Shown here piece by piece: positions 26,265 to 59,624 of a stretch of DNA of 64,000 nt. The stretch is from a virus (lineage: Duplodnaviria; Caudoviricetes): IMG/VR virus record IMGVR_UViG_2061766007_000959; one strand, 5' to 3'. Below the pieces are notes generated by a model. It did no database searches. It was not told the DNA's origin and saw nothing but the letters and a program-made list of their open reading frames with translations. Numbering within the stretch: the stretch's first letter is position 1; the number at the start of each line of letters is the position of its first letter. The position numbers and the translations under genes were made by a program.

Positions 26265-26456
26265 ATGAAATCGATTTACAACAGCGGATTGAAACAACAT
26301 TGGACTAAAAAGGGCAATGTTATGAAACCCAAAATGTCCTTTGACACGCCCGAGGACGCCAAGCGTTACAGGGACGAAAACGGTATCAGTTTCAGGTACA
26401 AGCCGTACCTGTGCGACGTTTGCAACAAATATCATTTGGGACACAAAAACAAATAA
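26265..26456 (+). CDS. small Zn-ribbon protein
   Basis: PYLCDVCNKYHLGH. Confidence 0.65.
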   Translation: MKSIYNSGLKQHWTKKGNVMKPKMSFDTPEDAKRYRDENGISFRYKPYLCDVCNKYHLGHKNK

Positions 26457-26463
26457 AAATATT

Positions 26464-27795
26464 ATGACAGCAACATTCTTTTACTCGATAGCAGGTCTGA
26501 AACAGTCGAACACGATTGACGACCTGTTGCACAATATGTCAACGATTGAGTACATAAACCAAAAGGACAGGAACGTAGCCGAATACTGCCTGCAATGCGC
26601 GGAACACGGGAACTATCCGTCGGCTGACTATTTCGTGAACATATACGACAAGCCGAAAACCGTCCTGAAGACAGAGGCTGAAATAGTCCTGCATTTCAAA
26701 GAGTTGGTTGACTTTCACGCGAGACAGGCGGTACAGCGCAACGTCACGACGGCAATAAACGAGACGTCAACGTCGGCTGACCTTCTGACGCGCCTGTCAA
26801 AGATAATCACCGACACAGAGAACGCTAACGACAGCGAGTTCAGTTTCGACGACTGCAAGCCCGAACTGTACGGCGACGTTGACAAGCCGCTCGACAGCGG
26901 ACTTATGACGGGAATCGAGGAACTTGACAAGACGACAAACGGTTTCCAACGGGGTACGGTGGCGAGTATCTGCGGTTTCACGGGACACGGAAAGTCAACG
27001 GCGTGCAACAGCGCGGCGTACCAAAATATCGTAAGCGGAAAGAAAGTCCTGATTATATCAATTGAGTTGCCGCCCGACATGGTTTGGAAACAGTTTGAGA
27101 CGCGCTATATGTTCGAGCGAGAACTCGCCGTTGACGTTCACAACATGGAACATCACACGTTGGACGACAGTGTCGGCAAACAGGTTGTATCATACGAGCC
27201 TGATTTTAAGCGCGACGTAGTTCCCAATCTGTTGGTGATAGACGAATCGAAAATCACGAAAAAGATAATGACCGATTATCGAAAGATAAACAAACTGTTC
27301 AAGGCGGCTGAGCGCAAACTCGGCGGCTTGGACATGGTGATTGTTGACCACGTCGGTCAGTTGGAACTGTTGTACCCTGAGACGGGAAACATAATTCTGA
27401 AACAACTCACGTCAGCGGCTAAGACGTTCAAGAACGAAAACGGGGAAAAGATTGTCATGGTGTGGGCTGTGCAGTGCAACCGCGAGGGCAACAGGCGCGC
27501 GATACGCCGCGAGGGTCAGTATGACTTGCAGGCGATAGCCGACCTTAACGAGGTCGAGCGTTCGTCGTCATACTGTGTGTTCCTGTACACGTCGGACGCT
27601 ATGAAAATAACACAGGAGACGAAAGTGTCTATGCTTAAAAACCGTCTCGGTGTTCCGATTCCTGTCCCGTTTGTCACGTCGTTCACCCCGTCGGTCGTTA
27701 TGGTCGGCAGAAAATTTGACAGGGCGAATATGAGCGACGTTGATTTCTCGTTTACCGAAATGGGCGGTGAGTACGAGGATATACCGCCGTTCTAA
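26464..27795 (+). CDS. dnaB: replicative DNA helicase, DnaB/SF4 family
   Basis: TGIEELD, Walker A GFTGHGKS, Walker B MVIVDH, QCNR, LKNR arginine finger. Confidence 0.92.
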   Translation: MTATFFYSIAGLKQSNTIDDLLHNMSTIEYINQKDRNVAEYCLQCAEHGNYPSADYFVNIYDKPKTVLKTEAEIVLHFKELVDFHARQAVQRNVTTAINETSTSADLLTRLSKIITDTENANDSEFSFDDCKPELYGDVDKPLDSGLMTGIEELDKTTNGFQRGTVASICGFTGHGKSTACNSAAYQNIVSGKKVLIISIELPPDMVWKQFETRYMFERELAVDVHNMEHHTLDDSVGKQVVSYEPDFKRDVVPNLLVIDESKITKKIMTDYRKINKLFKAAERKLGGLDMVIVDHVGQLELLYPETGNIILKQLTSAAKTFKNENGEKIVMVWAVQCNREGNRRAIRREGQYDLQAIADLNEVERSSSYCVFLYTSDAMKITQETKVSMLKNRLGVPIPVPFVTSFTPSVVMVGRKFDRANMSDVDFSFTEMGGEYEDIPPF

Positions 27796-37041: not shown

Positions 37042-37416
37042 ATGGATTTACACTCGTTCAAAGATTACGTCAACGGCACGTTGAACATCGATACGGAATA
37101 CAGAAGGATTTTCGGTCGGGACATCCCGTCGGGGAAATTCTTTTGCCCGTTCCACGTCAACACGAACACACCCGCCGCCAAAAGATATTTCAACGGAATC
37201 AAGTGTTTCAGTTGTAACCGTTTTTACACGGTTTACGATTTGTTGTACACATTCGACAGGAAACGATTGGATGACATAAAGGGTTCGATGGTGATAGAAC
37301 CGTTGAAACAGTCCACGTTACAACAACAGAAACGAATCAGAATCGTCGATTACGACCCGAACGGGCGGATGACCTATATATTAGACACGATATTAAAAGC
37401 GAACGAAATATGTTAG
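37042..37416 (+). CDS. stand-alone CHC2 zinc-finger (primase Zn-binding domain) protein
   Basis: CPFH...TP...CFSC; only 124 aa, no TOPRIM domain. Confidence 0.8.
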   Translation: MDLHSFKDYVNGTLNIDTEYRRIFGRDIPSGKFFCPFHVNTNTPAAKRYFNGIKCFSCNRFYTVYDLLYTFDRKRLDDIKGSMVIEPLKQSTLQQQKRIRIVDYDPNGRMTYILDTILKANEIC

Positions 37417-39959
37417 AAACCGAATACAGCAACACCAAACACACATTGTACCTCGTCCAAACCACGGACGATTTACGGTCGATACAAACCGACGGGCATA
37501 CCGTCGCGTTGAATGTCGAAACAACGGGTTACGATTACAATAAAGACACCATTGTCGGGGTGTCAATCGCGGTGTTGGACGGGGACAGAATCACATCGTA
37601 TTATATTCCGTTACGGCACACGGTCGGTAATAACATCGACACCGAACCGACGTTCGCTTTGGTTCAGAAAATAATTGACAACAACGGGGTTTATTTTTAC
37701 AATCGTGATTTCGTGTTCACATTCCTTGAAAAAGAGGGAATCCGATGCGGTTTGAACCACACGCACGACACACAGATAATGTTGTACCTGTGTACCAACA
37801 AACCGTGTCCGACACGCAACGAATACGCGCATCTGTTTTTCCCCGACGTTCCGATTTACGAACTCGACCTCGAACGATTGAATTTCGCGGAACACAACCC
37901 CGACGTGGCTTTCATATTCGCGGCACAGAAAACGGTGTTGACAATCATGTTGGCACGGTACGTTTGGAAAACCTATGACATGATTCACAACATATACCAA
38001 TTGGATAACGAATCAAATGAGGTGGTGCGTTGGATATGTAAGAACACCGAACTACCAATATCGAAAGAACGCGTGCGGGAGGAATTGAACAACGTGAACA
38101 CCGACATCGACGAAATCAAATACAAACTACGCGGATTGTTGGGGTATGACGCGGAAATCGACAACCCCGTGAAACGTCTTGATTTGGTGCGTGAATGTAT
38201 CGGGACGGTGGAAAGCCTTTCGGATTACGCCGTGAAGGATTCCGCTCATCCCGTTGTTATGTTGGTGAAACGTTACGGGGAACTGTCCGTGTACCGAACC
38301 ACGCTTGAAAAGATGTTGGATTACGGGGACACGATGCGCGTCCGATATTCCACGGTGACGGCGGCGACAGGTCGTTTGTCGTCAGGCGGCGCGAAGGGTA
38401 ACACATTTTTCAACGATTTCAACATCCAGGCGGTTGAGAAAAAAGACGTTGTGCGTTATGTCCACCGAACCGATGACGGAATCGGTTTCACGATTGACGA
38501 CAACCCCGACAACGCGGTCAAAACGGTTAAATGCAAAGGCGGATTGCGTGACGCGTTCGTATGTCCCGACGGGTATGTTTGGGTGTCCGCCGACTACAGC
38601 GGCGAGGAAATGGTGTTGGCGGCATGTTTCAGTAAGGACGAAAACCTTATCGAACCAATACGCGAGGGAAAGGATATTCACCGACATATCGCCGAAACGA
38701 TGTTCGGACAAACGGACGACGAAAGCCGTTCACGGATAAAACAGTTGAATTTCAGTGTGATATACGGGGCGACGGAATATTCCATCGCGAAACGTTTGAA
38801 AATAACTGTGGATGAATGCCGCGAAATGTTGGCTAAATATTTCAACCATTTGGGCGGTTTGGACGAGTGGCGTAAACGGATGGTCGATAAGGCACGCAAA
38901 AACGGTTATGTATCGACGTTGTTCGGGCGACCCCGTATGTTGTTCGATTCGTATCAAAGGGGTGATTACCGCGCGGCAGACCGTTGTGCTTGCAATTCCC
39001 CGATACAGGGATGCACCCCGTTGTCGGGACATTTGGAAACCGAACATTCGGCTGTCCGTATGGAATCCGTCGTCGGTCGAAGATTGAAAGACGTTCACGG
39101 CGGTTTGTTGATACCGACACACCGTGGGGAATCCGAACCGTTGTTCTGTTTGTTCAGACGCGGGGAATGGATGATATGCGACGAAAACCATTCGTTTGTG
39201 TATGGTAATAAAAAAGCACCGAAGGTCGCGGCGTTGCGCAACGGTATAAAAAAACGCGTTTGGTTGGCTGAACTACGAAAGAAACAGTGGCGGTTCAACC
39301 GATTCGTGTTCCGTCCGTCGGGCGAATGCGCGTCGTTGTTCGTGATGTTGTGCAAGCGTGACACGGAAATAAAGGACGACAACGTGACGTTGAACAGCGC
39401 GTTGTTCAAACTTGCGTTGACCCGACATTGGTTTTCAGCGGATTACAACGCGGCGGTGTCGTTACGTTCGGTCGCGTCGATATTCGGGTACAACGTACTA
39501 TATAATGCGCGGCGTGACAAATTCAGGGTTTCGTTCCGCCGTCACAAACGGGTTCGGTTACGTTCTATCAGTTGGTGTTTGAAACAAGGAAAAACAGTTC
39601 CCGTCGGTTCGTGTACGAAGATAACCGACATGCAGATGTACGACAATCAGGGGTTCGTGAACAAAAACACGGGCGCGGATATTATCCGAATCGATTTGTG
39701 TAAATTCAAACGGTTGTTTGACACCGACGCAGATTGGGCGGCGAACGTCAAATTTGCATGTACCATACATGACGAATGCAATTTTTACGTCAAAAAGGAA
39801 TATTTGTGCGACGCGATACACAAAATATACGACACAATGTATTTCCAACACCCGTTGATGGCGTTACCTTTACGCGCCACCGTGTCCGTCGGGGCGGATT
39901 GGGGACATTTGTTAGATATTGATGTTCAATCCGTTACGGATAATAAAATATTAATATAA
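37410..39959 (+). CDS. polA: family A DNA polymerase with degenerate 3'-5' exonuclease domain and an intein
   Basis: ATGRLSS, motif A ADYSGEE, motif B R..IK..NF..IYG, GYVSTLFGRPR, NSPIQG/TGAD, motif C IHDE. Confidence 0.93.
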   Translation: MLETEYSNTKHTLYLVQTTDDLRSIQTDGHTVALNVETTGYDYNKDTIVGVSIAVLDGDRITSYYIPLRHTVGNNIDTEPTFALVQKIIDNNGVYFYNRDFVFTFLEKEGIRCGLNHTHDTQIMLYLCTNKPCPTRNEYAHLFFPDVPIYELDLERLNFAEHNPDVAFIFAAQKTVLTIMLARYVWKTYDMIHNIYQLDNESNEVVRWICKNTELPISKERVREELNNVNTDIDEIKYKLRGLLGYDAEIDNPVKRLDLVRECIGTVESLSDYAVKDSAHPVVMLVKRYGELSVYRTTLEKMLDYGDTMRVRYSTVTAATGRLSSGGAKGNTFFNDFNIQAVEKKDVVRYVHRTDDGIGFTIDDNPDNAVKTVKCKGGLRDAFVCPDGYVWVSADYSGEEMVLAACFSKDENLIEPIREGKDIHRHIAETMFGQTDDESRSRIKQLNFSVIYGATEYSIAKRLKITVDECREMLAKYFNHLGGLDEWRKRMVDKARKNGYVSTLFGRPRMLFDSYQRGDYRAADRCACNSPIQGCTPLSGHLETEHSAVRMESVVGRRLKDVHGGLLIPTHRGESEPLFCLFRRGEWMICDENHSFVYGNKKAPKVAALRNGIKKRVWLAELRKKQWRFNRFVFRPSGECASLFVMLCKRDTEIKDDNVTLNSALFKLALTRHWFSADYNAAVSLRSVASIFGYNVLYNARRDKFRVSFRRHKRVRLRSISWCLKQGKTVPVGSCTKITDMQMYDNQGFVNKNTGADIIRIDLCKFKRLFDTDADWAANVKFACTIHDECNFYVKKEYLCDAIHKIYDTMYFQHPLMALPLRATVSVGADWGHLLDIDVQSVTDNKILI
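39012..39668 (+). mobile_element. intein (219 aa) in DNA polymerase; endonuclease domain degenerate
   Basis: Splits conserved NSPIQG|TGADI; starts Cys, block B CDENH, ends GFVNKN before Thr. Confidence 0.88.
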
Positions 39960-40046: not shown

Positions 40047-40811
40047 ATGGCACGTTATGTAACAGAATTTCATTTGACACACCCCGTGAACGATTTGGAC
40101 GCGGCTCGTGAATATTTACAAGCCGATAATATGACGGAATATTTAATCGATGACCTCGATTATTTGAAATTGACACGTCTTCAACCATCGGACATCGTGA
40201 ATCTCCAATGGGATTTACAGGACAAACAATACGGTTTGATTTATCTTGATACCGCGATTGACCTTACCGATGACGAATTGGCGAAAATATCCGATTGGGT
40301 CAGCGGGCAAAACAGCGACGGATTGGGCGAGGGGTTTGAGCAACAGGATTTCGCGGCGGGTGAAGATTGGGAGGAATACGAATACGAGGATGAAGATGGT
40401 GACACACAAACGGATTATGAAGAGGTAAGCACTATGGCATCGTTCGATTGGAAAACCAACAATTATTCGTTTAAAAAAATATCTGATTCGCGCCGCGTGA
40501 ACGATTTTTACTATAACGAAGAATCGAGGACAATGCGCAACTATTCGGATTTGTCCGAACAGGAAAAAAACAATGAATTGATACAGACATACGAATACGC
40601 GTTCACGTACATGATGAACAACCTCGACAGTTATATCGATACAACGAACGACCGCGCCGTCAAGGATTACATCGCCGAACAGGTTTACATATTCATGGGT
40701 AACGACCCGATGTTCGATAAAGACCAAATCGAATTGCACGGTATCAATTACGACAACGGGTTCGCCGAAGATTTGATTGATTTTCTATATAACGAATTTT
40801 TGGAACAATAA
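40047..40811 (+). CDS. acidic two-domain protein with internal KISDSRRVND linker
   Basis: SGQNSDGLGEGFEQ motif; own promoter near 40001. Confidence 0.65.
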   Translation: MARYVTEFHLTHPVNDLDAAREYLQADNMTEYLIDDLDYLKLTRLQPSDIVNLQWDLQDKQYGLIYLDTAIDLTDDELAKISDWVSGQNSDGLGEGFEQQDFAAGEDWEEYEYEDEDGDTQTDYEEVSTMASFDWKTNNYSFKKISDSRRVNDFYYNEESRTMRNYSDLSEQEKNNELIQTYEYAFTYMMNNLDSYIDTTNDRAVKDYIAEQVYIFMGNDPMFDKDQIELHGINYDNGFAEDLIDFLYNEFLEQ

Positions 40812-47924: not shown

Positions 47925-49178
47925 ATGAGTGCGAACAAATCAGACCTTGAATACCAATGGCGTTTGACATCCACATTGTTGAACACCGAAACACAACAAC
48001 GTCTTCTTAAACCCACGGGACGTAACAACGAATACAAGAAATCCGACTACATAGCCGCGTTATCCAAAACGAACGCGTACAAACAACACGGTCACACACT
48101 ATCGACAGACCTGTCCGCCGCAGACATTTGGAACGCGCTCACACCGTCGGAACGATTCCGTCTGTCATTCCACACACCGTGCCTCGCACGCCCCATCGAC
48201 GACCTTAACCAATCGGAACAACACGACATATACACGAACCCCGATTGGGTGTTCACCGAGAAACACCGTGGAATACGCGCCGTCCTGATTGTAAACAACA
48301 ACGTCACGAACATCTATTCACGCAACTACGCTGACGACGGTTCACTAATCGACTACGCCAAACGCATAAGCCAACATCCGACATACGACGGCACATACGC
48401 GGTTGATGTCATGATTACACTGTCAGAACCGTTCGACATCACGGACGATTTAAGAAACCACAGCATCACGGCGGAATCACGCCCCGAACAAATCCTGGGT
48501 CTTATGTGTGTTGACACACCCGTCGCAATCGGACTACAGAACACTGCGAAACAACAATACGGAATAGATTTGATAACGTTCCGTCTAATCCACCCGTTAT
48601 ACCTGAACGGTATCAACTACCTTAAACACCCGCTCGGTGACGGAATGGACGTGTACGACGAAACAATCCGCATCGGACAACAAATCGGTCTTAACATACA
48701 ACCCGTACAACGTTGCAATGCGAAAACCGAAGCCGAGAAACGGGTCTTCCTTAAATCCATACTCGACAACAACGGGGACGGCGTGGTCGCACAAAACCGC
48801 AACGGGGTGTACGATACCACGGACAGGCGTAACAAATCGTCCTATGTCAAAATAAAACGCATCACCGACGACCGTATGGGCGACACCATAGACGCGTTCC
48901 TGACGGGGGTGGAAAACGGGAACATAATCCTTTCAATATACGAGGAACGTGACGGACAACGGTTCAGGCGCACCATCGCTAAAATCAAAACCCCGAAACG
49001 CGTCGAATCAGAACTGTACGCGGGCGCGGTTATCGAACTGACGGGAAGCGGGATAAACGCGTCGGGAATGATTGTACGACCCAAATTCGTTAAAATGCGG
49101 CACGACAAACTTTATAACAACTGCGTATATACGACGGAATTTTTACGGGCACAAAGAAATGTCGGGTTTCATTATTGA
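47925..49178 (+). CDS. ATP-dependent DNA ligase-like protein with altered catalytic motifs
   Basis: EKHRGIR, YSRN, GDGVV, YVKIK, RPKFVKMRHDK OB-fold end. Confidence 0.8.
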   Translation: MSANKSDLEYQWRLTSTLLNTETQQRLLKPTGRNNEYKKSDYIAALSKTNAYKQHGHTLSTDLSAADIWNALTPSERFRLSFHTPCLARPIDDLNQSEQHDIYTNPDWVFTEKHRGIRAVLIVNNNVTNIYSRNYADDGSLIDYAKRISQHPTYDGTYAVDVMITLSEPFDITDDLRNHSITAESRPEQILGLMCVDTPVAIGLQNTAKQQYGIDLITFRLIHPLYLNGINYLKHPLGDGMDVYDETIRIGQQIGLNIQPVQRCNAKTEAEKRVFLKSILDNNGDGVVAQNRNGVYDTTDRRNKSSYVKIKRITDDRMGDTIDAFLTGVENGNIILSIYEERDGQRFRRTIAKIKTPKRVESELYAGAVIELTGSGINASGMIVRPKFVKMRHDKLYNNCVYTTEFLRAQRNVGFHY

Positions 49179-50397: not shown

Positions 50398-51567
50398 ATG
50401 TCAGTAAACATCAAAGTACATAATTTCCAATCGATTACGGATGCGGACATCACCGTGGACGGGTTCACCATTCTTGTCGGTGAATCGTCACAGGGCAAAT
50501 CCGCGTGCATGCGTGCCGTGAACGCCGCGTGCAACAACCGATTCAAACAGGGATTTCTGAAATACGGGACGGATGAAATGCGAATCGACATCAAATATTC
50601 CGACGACGACCGCACATTATCCGTGACGAAGACTAAAAAGGATTCCCCGACGTACCAACTTGGTGACACCGTGTACCAAAAACTGAACCGCACCGTCCCG
50701 CCCGAAATAGACGATTTCAACGGGTTCGGGGTTATTGACAACTACGAACAAAAATACCAATTAAACTTTTTCACACAGTTCAGTAAACCGTTGTTGTTGG
50801 AGTTTTCACAGAAACGCATTCTTGAGATTCTTTCATCGTCAAAGGCGTTCGACGACATGAACGATGCGGTTTCCAAACTGAACAAAAAGAAAGAACAGAA
50901 CAACGGCGCGTTCAAACAACTGTCACAGATGATAACGGACAACAAGACACAATTGTCGTCGTTATCGGAACGGGAATCCGCGATACACGATAACATCGCC
51001 ACGGTCGCCGAACACATGGAACGCCTGAAGGAACGCGAGAAACAAACGCAGACGGTCGAAGAATTGTCGGGGTTGGAAAACGCACGTCGGGAAACCGAAA
51101 CACGGATTAAGGATTTGAAAATCGTCATCGCGCATTGCGAACAAATTTCGGACGTGAAAGATGAAATCAAACGTTTGGACGAATTGAACGGTTACGTCAC
51201 CGAACAAACGGAATCCGAGAAACGCCAAGAAAACACCCAGAAACGAATATCACTGTGTGAACGGTATATTTCCCTATCCGAACGGAAAAAGTCCAACAGA
51301 ACGGATTTAATCACGGAATTGGAAAACCTTATCACGGAATCCCGTTCCGCGCAACCACGGATAAAACGGTTGTCCGAAACGGTCAAAACCGCCGAACGAT
51401 GCGTCAACCTGACCCGACGCGTGAACGAAACGTCCGACGGGATAAACCGACTTACGCGCCTGTCCGAACTGATGGACGCGTGCCGAACCGCGCAAAAGAC
51501 GATACGTGAAAAACAAAACATGATAGACAACCACATCTGCCCCGTATGCGGGAACAAAATGGTGTGA
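50398..51567 (+). CDS. Rad50/SbcC-like ATPase, N-terminal half (Walker A, coiled coil, Zn hook)
   Basis: VHNFQSI, GESSQGKS, terminal CPVCG. Confidence 0.88.
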   Translation: MSVNIKVHNFQSITDADITVDGFTILVGESSQGKSACMRAVNAACNNRFKQGFLKYGTDEMRIDIKYSDDDRTLSVTKTKKDSPTYQLGDTVYQKLNRTVPPEIDDFNGFGVIDNYEQKYQLNFFTQFSKPLLLEFSQKRILEILSSSKAFDDMNDAVSKLNKKKEQNNGAFKQLSQMITDNKTQLSSLSERESAIHDNIATVAEHMERLKEREKQTQTVEELSGLENARRETETRIKDLKIVIAHCEQISDVKDEIKRLDELNGYVTEQTESEKRQENTQKRISLCERYISLSERKKSNRTDLITELENLITESRSAQPRIKRLSETVKTAERCVNLTRRVNETSDGINRLTRLSELMDACRTAQKTIREKQNMIDNHICPVCGNKMV

Positions 51568-51622: not shown

Positions 51623-51859
51623 ATGGACGTTGAAAAAATCTACAAAGACACGAAAGCGGAATTGGAACGCCTGAACACGGAACAGGCAATCCGCGTTGAG
51701 AAAATCAAAACCCTGGCGGCGGAGTTCGGTTTCACGGTTGACGGCACACTGTCAACCAACGTGTCCGCGAAACGCGCGGAATTGGAACAGGAAAAAGCCG
51801 AATTGGAATCCGAACTTCAATCCGTATTACTCGAACTTGAAAAAACGCAGACTGAATGA
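51623..51859 (+). CDS. small coiled-coil protein between the Rad50/SbcC halves
   Basis: Heptad pattern; coupled to next gene. Confidence 0.7.
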   Translation: MDVEKIYKDTKAELERLNTEQAIRVEKIKTLAAEFGFTVDGTLSTNVSAKRAELEQEKAELESELQSVLLELEKTQTE

Positions 51860-52452
51860 ACCCCGAACTTGAACGACGCGCCAACGCGCAACTGTTACGT
51901 CATAACGAACTGACGAACGACATACGCCGCGTCCAATCCGTCATCGACAACGCGGAACAATCCCTCGTCGGGATAAACCGCGAACGGGAATTGATAGAAC
52001 GTTCCCTGTTGGCTTTGAAACAGGTGCGCCCGTTACTGTCAGGTTCGTCGATAAAGGAATGTGAGGAATTGGCGAACGCCGCGATACGGTCGATATTCAA
52101 TTTCGATTACACGGTGGAATACGACATGGAATCCAACCGATTCGTCCTGAACAAAGGCGACTATTCGACGGATTTGTCGGAAGCCGAGGGCGGCGGAATA
52201 ATAACCGTCATATCGTTTGTGTTCCTTGTTTATCTGATAGTGAAACTGAACCGACGCAGAATCATTTTCTTGGACGAAGCGTTCACACAGGTGTCGGATT
52301 CCTATTTCGGGGCGTTCATCGGGTTCGTGAACGAACTGTGCGGTGATTTGGGTTTCGACCTGTTGTTGGTGTCACACGACCAACGCATAACGGCGGACGA
52401 CGTTCGGCATGTTTACCAAATCGCGGACGGGAAATCGAAACGGGTGAAGTAA
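51856..52452 (+). CDS. Rad50/SbcC-like ATPase, C-terminal half
   Basis: Signature EGGG, Walker B IIFLDEAF, H-loop VSHD. Confidence 0.88.
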   Translation: MNPELERRANAQLLRHNELTNDIRRVQSVIDNAEQSLVGINRERELIERSLLALKQVRPLLSGSSIKECEELANAAIRSIFNFDYTVEYDMESNRFVLNKGDYSTDLSEAEGGGIITVISFVFLVYLIVKLNRRRIIFLDEAFTQVSDSYFGAFIGFVNELCGDLGFDLLLVSHDQRITADDVRHVYQIADGKSKRVK

Positions 52453-54742: not shown

Positions 54743-55042
54743 ATGGAAAAGAACAAGACATTCGATTTGGTGAAATCGATATTGGAAAACGACCCCGACA
54801 CACGGGATGACGATTTCGCCCTGATTTACAAAGTGGCGGAACATTATGGTTTGGAAGATTGTTCGTTCGGATATGCGTTGAAGTGTTGGAAGACGGAAAG
54901 GATGCCGTCGTTCGAGGCTATCACCCGCGCACGGCGCAAGGTTCAGGAATTGAACCCGTCGCTGTGTTCCGAGGAACGTATCGCGGAAATGCGCCGCAAA
55001 CAGGAAAGGAAGTATCACGATTTTTATTCGGCGAACAAATGA
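54743..55042 (+). CDS. hypothetical protein
   Basis: PDTRDDD...EAITRARRKVQE motif. Confidence 0.7.
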   Translation: MEKNKTFDLVKSILENDPDTRDDDFALIYKVAEHYGLEDCSFGYALKCWKTERMPSFEAITRARRKVQELNPSLCSEERIAEMRRKQERKYHDFYSANK

Positions 55043-55902
55043 CGAAATTCGTATTCATAACCGATTTGCACATAACGTCCGTGTGCAACGTCCGAACGGG
55101 CGACGTGTTGGACGACATATGTAAGAAACTTGATTATGTCGTCGGGTACGCGAACGACAACGGCATGCCGATTGTGATTGGTGGTGACGTGTTTGACAAA
55201 CCCACCGTCCCCGATTTCGTGAAAGCGGCTGTCGGGCGCGTGTTCAGAAAAGCCGTGAACCCGATATACACGATAAACGGAAACCACGACACACTGTACA
55301 ACAACGACGAGTTCAACGTCAGAACGTCATACAACCTTTTCTGTGAAATGGGTTTGTTCACCGATTTCACGGGCGGACGTGTCTTGGGGGGTTGTGTCCT
55401 GACGAACGAATTACCCCTTAAAACGAACGGGAAACCGACGGTGTGTGTGTACCACGGTTTTTGGAACATCGACGACGGACGATGGTGTTGTAAGACGGAT
55501 GATGTCGTCGGGACGGCGGACGAAACGTTGGTGTTGTTGGGACACGACCATACCGTGTACGCTGACGAAATGGTCGGTGAAAACATACGTGTCGTGCGCC
55601 CAGGGTCTTTTCTGCGGGGGATTCGTATCGACGAACAGAACAGAACACCGATGATGGCGGTTTGTTCGTTGGTTGACGGGAAATGGGTCGTGGAATACGA
55701 ACCGATAAAATGCCGTCCCGCGTCGGAGATATTCACGGCGAAACAGTACGCGATGAAGGCGACCGAGGTTCGGGATTCGTATGCGGACATTATCGAACGT
55801 TTGAAAACCGCGCGGACGGGTGAAATGACGTTGGAGGACGCGTTAAAGGAAGTGACTGAACAGGAAATAGTGGATTACATAAACTTATGTTTGGGGGAAT
55901 AG
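55039..55902 (+). CDS. Mre11/SbcD-like metallophosphoesterase nuclease
   Basis: DLH, GGDVFD, GNHD, HG, GHDH, PGS motifs. Confidence 0.9.
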   Translation: MTKFVFITDLHITSVCNVRTGDVLDDICKKLDYVVGYANDNGMPIVIGGDVFDKPTVPDFVKAAVGRVFRKAVNPIYTINGNHDTLYNNDEFNVRTSYNLFCEMGLFTDFTGGRVLGGCVLTNELPLKTNGKPTVCVYHGFWNIDDGRWCCKTDDVVGTADETLVLLGHDHTVYADEMVGENIRVVRPGSFLRGIRIDEQNRTPMMAVCSLVDGKWVVEYEPIKCRPASEIFTAKQYAMKATEVRDSYADIIERLKTARTGEMTLEDALKEVTEQEIVDYINLCLGE

Positions 55903-58129: not shown

Positions 58130-59624
58130 ATAATTGGTGTCAAGGAAACCACGAAATCTTTAGTTTCGTGGAGGAATTGACACAAGCCTTTTTTTTGTTT
58201 AACATATATTTTATGCAAAAAAAATGAAAAATTATAATATAATATGAATATTTTTAATTATATTTGCTATCTATAAGAAAGAAACGAATTTTACGATGTA
58301 TTTGACCACAAAAATAACACAAACTGAACACAATAGCGAGGTTGACTTGTCTATACTCGCACACTTGTGCTATCATTCAGCAAGGTTGTACAATGTTGGT
58401 CTATACTCCGTTAGACAACACTATTTCAATACACAAAAATACCTTCCTTATTACGAAAATTACAAAGAGTGCAAGGAGAATGAAAATTATAGCATCCTTC
58501 TTTCGGATTGTTCCCAACAAATACTACGTCTTGTAGATAGGGATATGCAGTCGTTCTTCAAACTTCTTACATTGAAGAAAAGCGGTAAGTATTCCGATAA
58601 GGTCAAACTTCCAAAATACAAGAAGGCAGACGAACTTGCTATCTGCACAATTCAAGGTAGGAGTTGCCGTATCCAAAAGGATGGTCGTGTGGCAATAGGT
58701 CTAACAAAGGAATTCCGTAAGAAGTACCAAATCAACGAAAGACGAATCCTATTCACAATCCCAAAGAATATTAGGTGCGTTTCCGAATTTAAAGAAATAA
58801 GGATAATACCGCAATTCAACGGAAAACAATTTTCAATAGAGTTTATCTACGAATCAAAGAAGGATTTAAAACAATCGGTAGGTGATGGCTATATGTCAAT
58901 AGACTTGGGATTAGACAACCTCGTTGCAAGTACAATCTTTTCTAATGGTGGCGTTCAGCAATTCTTGATTGATGGACGAAGACTGAAAAACATAAACCAC
59001 TATTACAATAAGAAAGTTGCAACGCTAAAGGGAGAATACGACAAGAAAGGTATAAGTCATAACACCAAACGAATGCTTCGTCTAATCAATGGTAGGTACA
59101 ACCGCATCAACGATTATTTCAACAAGTCCGTTCAGTTGATAATCAACAAGTGCATTGAAAACGGAGTTACCACATTGGTAATCGGATATAATAAGGAACA
59201 AAAACAAGAAATCAACATCGGTAAGGTTAACAACCAAAACTTTGTTATGATACCATTGCATAAGTTCCGACAAAAGTTGAAATACAAATGTGAGTTGCAC
59301 GGAATCAAATATTGTCCACAAGAAGAAAGTTACACATCTAAAGCAAGTTGTCTTGACGATGATAAAATTCCTACTTATGGCGAGAATGAGACTACGAAAT
59401 TCAGTGGAAAACGCATCCACAGAGGTTTGTACAAGTCTGCTGACGGAAAAGTTCTTAATGCGGACATAAATGGGAGTGTGAACATTCTCAAAAAATACCT
59501 AATTTCAAGTAAATCAAATGTTGTTTTTACAACAGATGATGTAAGAGTGCTTGTAAACGCACCTTGTAAAAGACTTTCAGTATTTTGCTAAAGCCCACGA
59601 ATCTTTAGTTCGTGGGCAGTTTAC
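58130..59624 (+). mobile_element. IS200/IS605-family element, tnpB only (IS1341-like)
   Basis: Left hairpin CCACGAAA-TCTTTAG-TTTCGTGG, right hairpin CCCACGAA-TCTTTAG-TTCGTGGG; guide/cleavage tetranucleotides fit the IS608 spacing. Confidence 0.9.
58296..59591 (+). CDS. tnpB: TnpB RNA-guided endonuclease
   Basis: LYN HTH, SIDLGLDN (RuvC-I), QEESYTSK, NADINGSVNIL (RuvC-III). Confidence 0.93.
   Translation: MYLTTKITQTEHNSEVDLSILAHLCYHSARLYNVGLYSVRQHYFNTQKYLPYYENYKECKENENYSILLSDCSQQILRLVDRDMQSFFKLLTLKKSGKYSDKVKLPKYKKADELAICTIQGRSCRIQKDGRVAIGLTKEFRKKYQINERRILFTIPKNIRCVSEFKEIRIIPQFNGKQFSIEFIYESKKDLKQSVGDGYMSIDLGLDNLVASTIFSNGGVQQFLIDGRRLKNINHYYNKKVATLKGEYDKKGISHNTKRMLRLINGRYNRINDYFNKSVQLIINKCIENGVTTLVIGYNKEQKQEINIGKVNNQNFVMIPLHKFRQKLKYKCELHGIKYCPQEESYTSKASCLDDDKIPTYGENETTKFSGKRIHRGLYKSADGKVLNADINGSVNILKKYLISSKSNVVFTTDDVRVLVNAPCKRLSVFC

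Follow-up and report, generated by a model that had tools for sequence, protein, structure and literature searches.

Family A DNA polymerases (PolAs) require their exonuclease domain even when it is inactive, according to the passages of a 2023 survey that deal with this domain (PMC10201439), and an exonuclease that is present only as a vestige is a known kind of feature in this family. In the cited parts of the survey, conservation of the DxE motif is given as "No" for the APEX PolAs of Actinobacteria, Pol theta and Pol nu, and as about 42% for canonical Pol I (PMC10201439). For every phage PolA subfamily it is given as "Yes" (95-100%); the paper's Table 1 has some phage clusters in which 1-5% lack the motif, and it is stated there that the exonuclease seems to be preserved throughout the phage PolAs (PMC10201439). 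Cellular enzymes with a dead site include Bst Pol I, for which the review passage cited here describes Val319, Ala376 and Lys450 at the three aspartate sites and no exonuclease (PMC13207698), and Helicobacter pylori Pol I, which is without Asp355, Asp424 and Asp501 and, in the passages cited, is shown to lack proofreading and to promote mutagenesis (PMC3121766). In phages, an enzyme with all three exonuclease aspartates replaced was reported in 2024, namely divPolA1 of Flavobacterium phage vB_FspM_immuto and 13 related phages, as the cited parts of that report describe it (PMC11348598). Here we analyse the PolA gene in a 64,000-nucleotide stretch of DNA, called the window below, from the IMG/VR record IMGVR_UViG_2061766007_000959 of a virus of the Caudoviricetes (Duplodnaviria). 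Its exonuclease-like domain has likewise lost the equivalents of all three aspartates, which is an uncommon setting for a feature of this kind. We think it probable that the product is a Klenow-like phage polymerase whose polymerase site is active and whose exonuclease module is folded, non-catalytic and kept under selection.

The N-terminal 265 residues of the 849-codon open reading frame (ORF) share, as profile comparison shows, homology with the DEDDy 3'-5' exonuclease domain of its relatives and of Klenow. An exhaustive HMMER search with these residues found 221 cluster representatives (E<=1e-3), and the DEDDy set is intact in almost all of them; 74 of the 221 lie at E<=1e-10, and the homology to exonuclease-intact relatives reaches an E-value of 1e-30. 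A profile of 60 relatives aligns across the whole Klenow fragment (E 1e-113), so placed that the relatives' D-T-E, N-x-x-x-D and Y-A-A-x-D fall on FDTETD, NLKYD and YAAEDAD of Klenow, and the query itself aligns to the relatives free of gaps through all three motifs. The Klenow chains matched by the profile include the D355A and D355A/E357A mutants, which confirms which aspartate is meant. We use what we take to be the standard Klenow residue numbers for the exonuclease and polymerase sites, of which the exonuclease ones are consistent with passages in the literature. The positions of Klenow D355, E357, D424, Y497 and D501 then read N35, E37, V102, F170 and K174 in the ORF (Table 1). Pfam and PDB searches were less informative on this domain: PF01612 did not match the 849-residue ORF, the match of PF13482 (RNase_H_2) to the N-terminal domain was weak, and the domain alone gave chance matches only against PDB. 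The 60-relative profile aligned Klenow and not the exonuclease parts of Taq and Bst, and the Bst residues were taken from the review.

Since N35, V102 and K174 stand at the positions that hold the metals, the site should be unable to bind two metals or to hydrolyse a mismatched 3' end. Sequence and biochemical precedent, the latter in enzymes with the same substitutions, together strongly support the absence of exonuclease activity, which we infer for this protein. A preliminary description of the locus had already read the three motifs as degenerate, had listed ETTG, IVGVSIA, YYIPLRH and HDT as marks of the exonuclease fold, and had called for an alignment with relatives and Klenow. On re-reading the ORF, the coordinates and residues of all three motifs are exact and every one of the fold markers is present, and the 60-relative profile upholds the motif assignment. 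Its further statement that polymerase motifs A, B and C are intact is borne out by the ORF and by 16 clade sequences, as described below.

The loss is not particular to one sequence. A word-indexed search found a clade comprising 22 full-length proteins of 847-863 amino acids, at 53-96% identity, and one fragment of 481 amino acids, and the 24 clade sequences, which come from independent assemblies, are 52-96% identical. When the stored proteins were aligned to a hidden Markov model (HMM) of the N-terminal domain, 268 domain rows were obtained, and 195 of them carry D-E-N-D-Y-D at the six exonuclease positions; the rows other than these and the 24 of the clade are mostly gapped fragments, with a few single variants. 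The equivalents of D355, D424 and D501 are absent in all 24 clade sequences. Position 35 is N in 22 and G and C in one each; E37 is kept throughout; position 98 is N or K; position 102 is V in 12, A in nine and T, M or S in one each; position 170 is F in 18 and Y in six; and K174, at the D501 position, is found in 24 of 24. The three losses are fixed in the clade, and because all of its sequences share them they are a lineage trait, with sequencing error and chance excluded.

For the direction of change a tree was inferred from the polymerase columns alone, leaving out those of the exonuclease domain and of the intein (95 rows, 361 columns; IQ-TREE, LG+G4, quick search). The rows were merged hmmsearch domain rows, from which those with more than 20% gaps had been removed (42 of 137), and the root was not inferred. 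All 23 full-length clade members form one branch with a Shimodaira-Hasegawa-like approximate likelihood ratio test (SH-aLRT) value of 100 and a stem of 0.41, and every other member of the larger group that encloses the dead clade is DENDYD. The acids are present in Klenow and in all other lineages, which makes loss the parsimonious reading, and on this tree the exonuclease-dead state is shown to be derived. Identity between the clade and a sister group (P0023 and P0025-P0029) is 27-30% over the exonuclease domain and 33-50% over the polymerase parts. The state with Lys at the D501 position requires two changes on the tree. The metagenomic protein P0133 (817 amino acids) reads S-R-D-E-F-K at the six positions and groups with two intact proteins (SH-aLRT 99), and by its placement it is an independent second loss in the same PolA family, again with Lys in place of D501; this second Asp-to-Lys loss hints that the state is reachable and viable in phage replicases. 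As a separate observation, the stem to the dead clade is long in the polymerase domain itself, at 0.41 changes per column, and the polymerase part would therefore also have been much altered around the time when the proofreading site was lost.

The polymerase part of the protein is canonical. PF00476 (DNA_pol_A) matches the ORF in two stretches with an E-value of 3.7e-53 and 181.3 bits (cut-off 34.3), and solved Pol I chains in PDB match residues 374-583 (E 3e-32). Motif A is DYSGEE (38592-38609), motif B is RSRIKQLNFSVIYG (38727-38768) and motif C is HDE, inside 39765-39779; all three align to Klenow through the profile of the relatives. D395, Y396 and E400 of motif A, R440, K444, F448, Y452 and G453 of motif B, and H787, D788 and E789 of motif C are invariant in the 16 clade sequences. 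The ATG of the gene and the stop codon of the ORF just upstream overlap, and the N-terminus is common to the relatives. The protein begins at the exonuclease-like domain; Pfam found neither of the 5'-nuclease families PF02739 and PF01367 in the 849-residue ORF, and the closest relatives are proteins of 600-1650 amino acids that are also without 5'-nuclease domains.

The Pfam polymerase match is broken in two by an insert of 219 codons. As this insert starts with Cys and ends in ...NKN with Thr at +1, and as the intein-less relative P0025 runs uninterrupted across the NSPIQG/TGADIIR junction, it is identified as an intein; the mature enzyme should then be about 630 amino acids long. C535, N753 and T754 are invariant in the clade, and all 22 full-length clade relatives keep the intein. 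The sister proteins P0023 (34% identity) and P0027 (27%) have inserts at this site to which it aligns, and this would make it older than the exonuclease loss. In this PolA intein a Lys, and not a His, stands ahead of the terminal Asn.

For the reading that the domain is still an exonuclease, with other ligands (E37 together with D153, D42, D46 or others) or with one-metal chemistry, two residues could be cited: E37, invariant in 24 of 24, and D153, which is found in 23 of 24 where 39% of the intact relatives have G, and which is the sole conserved acid of the domain that is specific to the clade. However, E37, D42, D46, E107, D120, D199 and E204 are conserved in the exonuclease-intact relatives as well, and D42, D46 and D120 are hence not new ligands; no conserved acid that replaces the lost ones was seen in the clade alignment. 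The preliminary description had singled out the Asp at 37707 (D100) as an acid that, if it lay in the metal site, would undo its proposal. D100 varies between D, E, W, P and V within the clade, and the core claim stands. Other residues at the old metal site also speak against activity, as the D501 ligand position is always Lys, position 102 is variable and small or hydrophobic, and position 35 accepts N, G and C. The invariant changes specific to the clade are N35, S63, K131, R136, D153 and K174. K131 (24 of 24) replaces what is Glu in 51% of the intact relatives, and R136 (24 of 24) what is Leu or Met in 91%; by these changes the cleft would have lost acidic residues and gained basic ones. 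In the passages cited above, Bst and H. pylori Pol I show the identical pattern and are without exonuclease activity, and we regard a still active exonuclease as very improbable, although the domain is under purifying selection.

This selection is visible in two comparisons. The ratio of nonsynonymous to synonymous substitution rates (dN/dS) between the window and one 80%-identical IMG/VR relative is 0.066 for the exonuclease-like domain, 0.040 and 0.055 for the N-terminal and C-terminal polymerase parts and 0.134 for the intein, values that are rough given that dS is saturated (2.0-3.7) and only two DNA sequences were compared. The divergence of the exonuclease domain relative to that of the polymerase domain is 1.40 in the clade (253 pairs) and 1.00 in six intact sister sequences (15 pairs). 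The exonuclease-like domain is thus shown, as far as the sequences go, to be somewhat relaxed yet clearly maintained. The same figures bear on the thought that the gene is an artefact or a decaying pseudogene, for which nothing speaks beyond the unusual residues themselves. With 849 codons open, 22 full-length relatives from independent assemblies and a dN/dS of 0.04-0.13 in every part, this reading is refuted, and we give it practically no weight. The sharing of the losses by all 24 sequences, their single branch and the purifying selection all support a fixed evolutionary loss over a sequencing error, as first proposed for this locus.

If the domain is indeed a folded and non-catalytic module, the role of Lys174 is probably similar to that of Lys450 in Bst Pol I. 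It would occupy the place of the metal beside the retained Glu37, neutralising it and stabilising the cleft. The dead domain is probably retained for the stability that family A polymerases draw from it, and possibly for contacts with DNA or a partner. The exchange is not confined to phages. Of 91 cellular Pol I matches, 80 are DENDYD and one, P0034, has N/E/V/Y/K; two more have Lys at the last position, where the alignment of the degenerate ones is unreliable. P0034 is a cellular Pol I of 952 amino acids with 5'-nuclease domains, and together with Lys450 of Bst it suggests that the Asp-to-Lys change with retained Glu is a recurrent one. Bacterial Pol I commonly shows this substitution pattern.

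The comparison with these enzymes has two sides. Like Bst and H. pylori Pol I, the present PolA has kept the fold and lost the equivalents of D355, D424 and D501, with N/V/K here against Val/Ala/Lys in Bst. Those are cellular enzymes of repair and Okazaki fragment processing that work beside a proofreading Pol III, whereas this PolA has no 5'-nuclease domain, is encoded by a phage within a replication module and is the only polymerase found. It also resembles the APEX PolAs, Pol theta and Pol nu in keeping an inactive exonuclease site as a structural domain (PMC10201439, Table 1); these, however, are accessory cellular repair enzymes, and the APEX pocket is described as sealed by a loop. With the exonuclease-proficient phage PolAs (T7 gp5 type, and the sisters P0023 and P0025-P0029) it shares the two domains, similar inteins and a neighbourhood of helicase and primase-type genes, but these enzymes keep DENDYD.

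Whether the phage has another polymerase or a proofreader was examined in the window and in the 65.6-kb IMG/VR record of a relative (G001, CheckV completeness 46%), which by arithmetic from the locus coordinates reaches about 33 kb past the window end. In the window, 42 of the 44 non-overlapping ORFs of at least 140 amino acids were scanned with Pfam and the other two with PHROGs, and smaller ORFs were mostly left out. Among the ORFs scanned there is no RNase_T/DnaQ, PolA-exonuclease, PolB, Pol III or PHP family, and a six-frame search of the window with our own HMMs of the exonuclease and polymerase domains matched only the PolA gene itself. The six-frame search of the relative's record found one PolA and none of PF00929, PF01612, PF00136, PF03104, PF02811 and PF07733, and PF13482 matched only the N-terminus of that PolA. 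Among 13 unassigned ORFs, a scan for the motifs D-x-E and [HY]-x4-D produced no convincing candidate. The DnaQ-like gene or second polymerase envisaged in the preliminary description was thus not found in either record; about 32 kb of the genome, ahead of the window, lies outside this scope, and the 29 kb behind the window is covered through the relative's record only. Clade contigs of 135-147 kb, which carry P0005, P0006, P0010, P0014, P0018 and P0021, exist; the metagenome contigs gave 12 loci, of which the longest (75.7 kb) does not extend past the equivalent of the window, and two structural proteins from the window start matched no further IMG/VR contigs. The earlier suggestion of a polymerase tolerant of modified bases finds no nucleotide-modification family among the Pfam matches of the window ORFs, which is absence of evidence only.

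These searches bear first on the idea of an accessory polymerase for repair, lesion bypass, gap filling or recombination-dependent synthesis, beside a regular phage polymerase elsewhere or the host Pol III. The precedent is divPolA1, which in the cited parts of its description occurs in 14 phages of 155-190 kb, all of which encode a regular polymerase of family A, B or C as well (PMC11348598). In the record of Flavobacterium phage immuto_3-5A we could confirm two PolA genes, a divergent one of 441 amino acids at 1-1326 and a regular one near 39 kb, and the roughly 32 kb of the present phage genome outside the search leave room for a similar arrangement. The likeness extends to a phage-encoded family A enzyme with three exonuclease aspartates replaced, in a context of replication genes and in large genomes. 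But the PolA described here shows no specific relationship to divPolA1 that could be detected: it does not match the 441-residue divergent PolA at E<=1, and against the whole immuto_3-5A record it matched only the regular PolA at 39.5 kb, weakly (E 3e-7). Unlike divPolA1, with its truncated thumb and weak PF00476 matches, it is canonical, has full length (181 bits to PF00476) and is located in a replication module. Judged by the sequences, the clade is a separate and more recent loss in a canonical enzyme, nested among exonuclease-intact relatives. Neither the window ORFs scanned nor its six frames contain another polymerase, and the relative's record has no PF00136, PF03104 or PF07733 and no second PF00476. 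An accessory role therefore seems unlikely to us.

A second possibility is that proofreading is supplied in trans by a 3'-5' exonuclease of the phage or the host, such as a DnaQ-like protein, an SbcCD pair or the host epsilon subunit, to which the cleft hands over frayed 3' ends. The cleft has gained the invariant basic residues K131, R136 and K174, the window encodes SbcD/Mre11-like and SbcC-like proteins, and SbcCD is a nuclease of recombination and hairpins; we know of no case in which it acts as a proofreader. Exonuclease and polymerase are encoded by separate genes in T7-like phages, according to the cited passages of the survey (PMC10201439). Against this idea, the relative's record holds no PF00929, PF01612 or PF02811 and no second PF13482, and none of these exonuclease families is among the 42 window ORFs scanned with Pfam, the other two of the 44 being assigned by PHROGs. 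We consider proofreading in trans by such a nuclease to be improbable.

The preferred reading, a Klenow-like polymerase with a dead but selected exonuclease module, would have the enzyme act as the replicative polymerase of the phage, with fidelity left to base selection and any repair in trans. A replicative role is most likely because the gene adjoins a zinc-finger ORF and lies near a DnaB-like helicase. Several points weigh against this reading or parts of it. The replicative role is drawn from gene neighbourhood only, and the placing of E37, K174 and D153 in the cleft is a prediction from sequence. In the passages describing divPolA1, the single exonuclease-dead phage PolA published so far, it is always accompanied by a regular polymerase (PMC11348598). 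About 32 kb of the genome record, and any part absent from that record, lay outside the search, most of the phage proteins have no Pfam or PHROG assignment, so that a very divergent exonuclease could escape, and to these points the saturated dS mentioned above must be added. The stronger proposal, that this PolA is the sole polymerase of phages with 135-147-kb contigs and that they have no proofreading by the usual DEDD or PHP routes, is tentative and rather doubtful. If it were true, either the error load per genome would be far above that of other large double-stranded DNA viruses, or the cleft would have a new role. The remodelled cleft could, for example, park frayed 3' ends in a metal-free manner for a new trans-acting corrector.

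The positions of the polymerase features and of the neighbouring genes are collected in Table 1.

Table 1. Features of the polymerase locus and other genes of the window, in window coordinates
Feature	Position	Strand	Remarks
Family A DNA polymerase gene	37410..39959	+	849 codons and TAA; from the ORF list, Pfam and PDB
DEDDy-fold 3'-5' exonuclease-like domain, residues 1-265	37410..38204	+	predicted catalytically degenerate; from homology to relatives
ExoI position, N35-V-E37	37512..37520	+	D355 equivalent lost, E357 equivalent kept
ExoII position, N98-R-D100-F-V102	37701..37715	+	D424 equivalent lost; D100 at 37707, V102 at 37713
Clade-specific changes K131, R136, D153	37800..37868	+	K131 at 37800, R136 at 37815, D153 at 37866
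ExoIII position, F170-A-A-Q-K174	37917..37931	+	D501 equivalent is Lys; K174 at 37929
Polymerase domain, N-terminal part, residues 266-534	38205..39011	+	motifs A and B
Intein, residues 535-753	39012..39668	+	between NSPIQG and TGADIIR
Polymerase domain, C-terminal part, residues 754-849	39669..39956	+	motif C
DnaB-like replicative helicase	26341..27795 (26341-27792 in the ORF scan)	+	PF03796 DnaB_C, E 3.7e-15; same gene module as PolA
ORF of 124 amino acids with Cys/His cluster	37042..37416	+	CPFH...CFSC; overlaps the polymerase start codon
ATP-dependent DNA ligase, weak match	47925-49175		25.4 bits against a Pfam cut-off of 26.2
SbcC/Rad50-like ATPase pieces	50398-51564, 51856-52449		
SbcD/Mre11-like phosphoesterase	54859-55899		about 2.4 kb downstream of the SbcC-like pieces
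TnpB-like protein	58296-59588		OrfB_IS605 and Cas12f1-like TNB domain, inside the phage genome

The ORF of 124 amino acids directly upstream of the polymerase has no Pfam match, and its only PHROG match is 11992, of unknown function (E 0.0055). From its motif it is probably a zinc-finger protein of primase type; it has no catalytic primase domain, and the window ORFs that were scanned gave no match to a TOPRIM or primase family. Directly after the polymerase lies an acidic ORF of 254 amino acids (40047-40808) without a family match, which contains DSRRVND. The SbcC/Rad50-like ATPase is apparently split, its two ORFs being separated by a small third one. Other matches in the window are an Ant-like protein, an amidase, a BspA-type leucine-rich repeat protein and a glycosyltransferase.

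The finding goes against the published generalisation, as worded in the cited passages of the survey, that phage family A replicases all keep proofreading (PMC10201439), and the only published phage exception that we found is the accessory enzyme divPolA1, as described in the cited parts of its report (PMC11348598). Targeted literature searches found no description of this clade in print. In one assay the errors per base in vitro are about 2.5e-4 for Taq, which is naturally without exonuclease, and 2.5e-5 for Klenow, according to the passage cited (PMC12634111). At rates like that of Taq, a genome of 125 kb would take tens of errors per copy, a figure carried over from other enzymes. There may be practical interest in the enzyme too, as a mesophilic PolA that is naturally free of exonuclease. 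The phages of this clade probably copy their DNA without error correction by the polymerase itself. They would thus be a natural system in which to ask what fidelity a genome well above 100 kb really requires, whether the host's repair or new trans-acting factors make up for the loss, and why N/V/K with a retained Glu recurs in unrelated polymerases.

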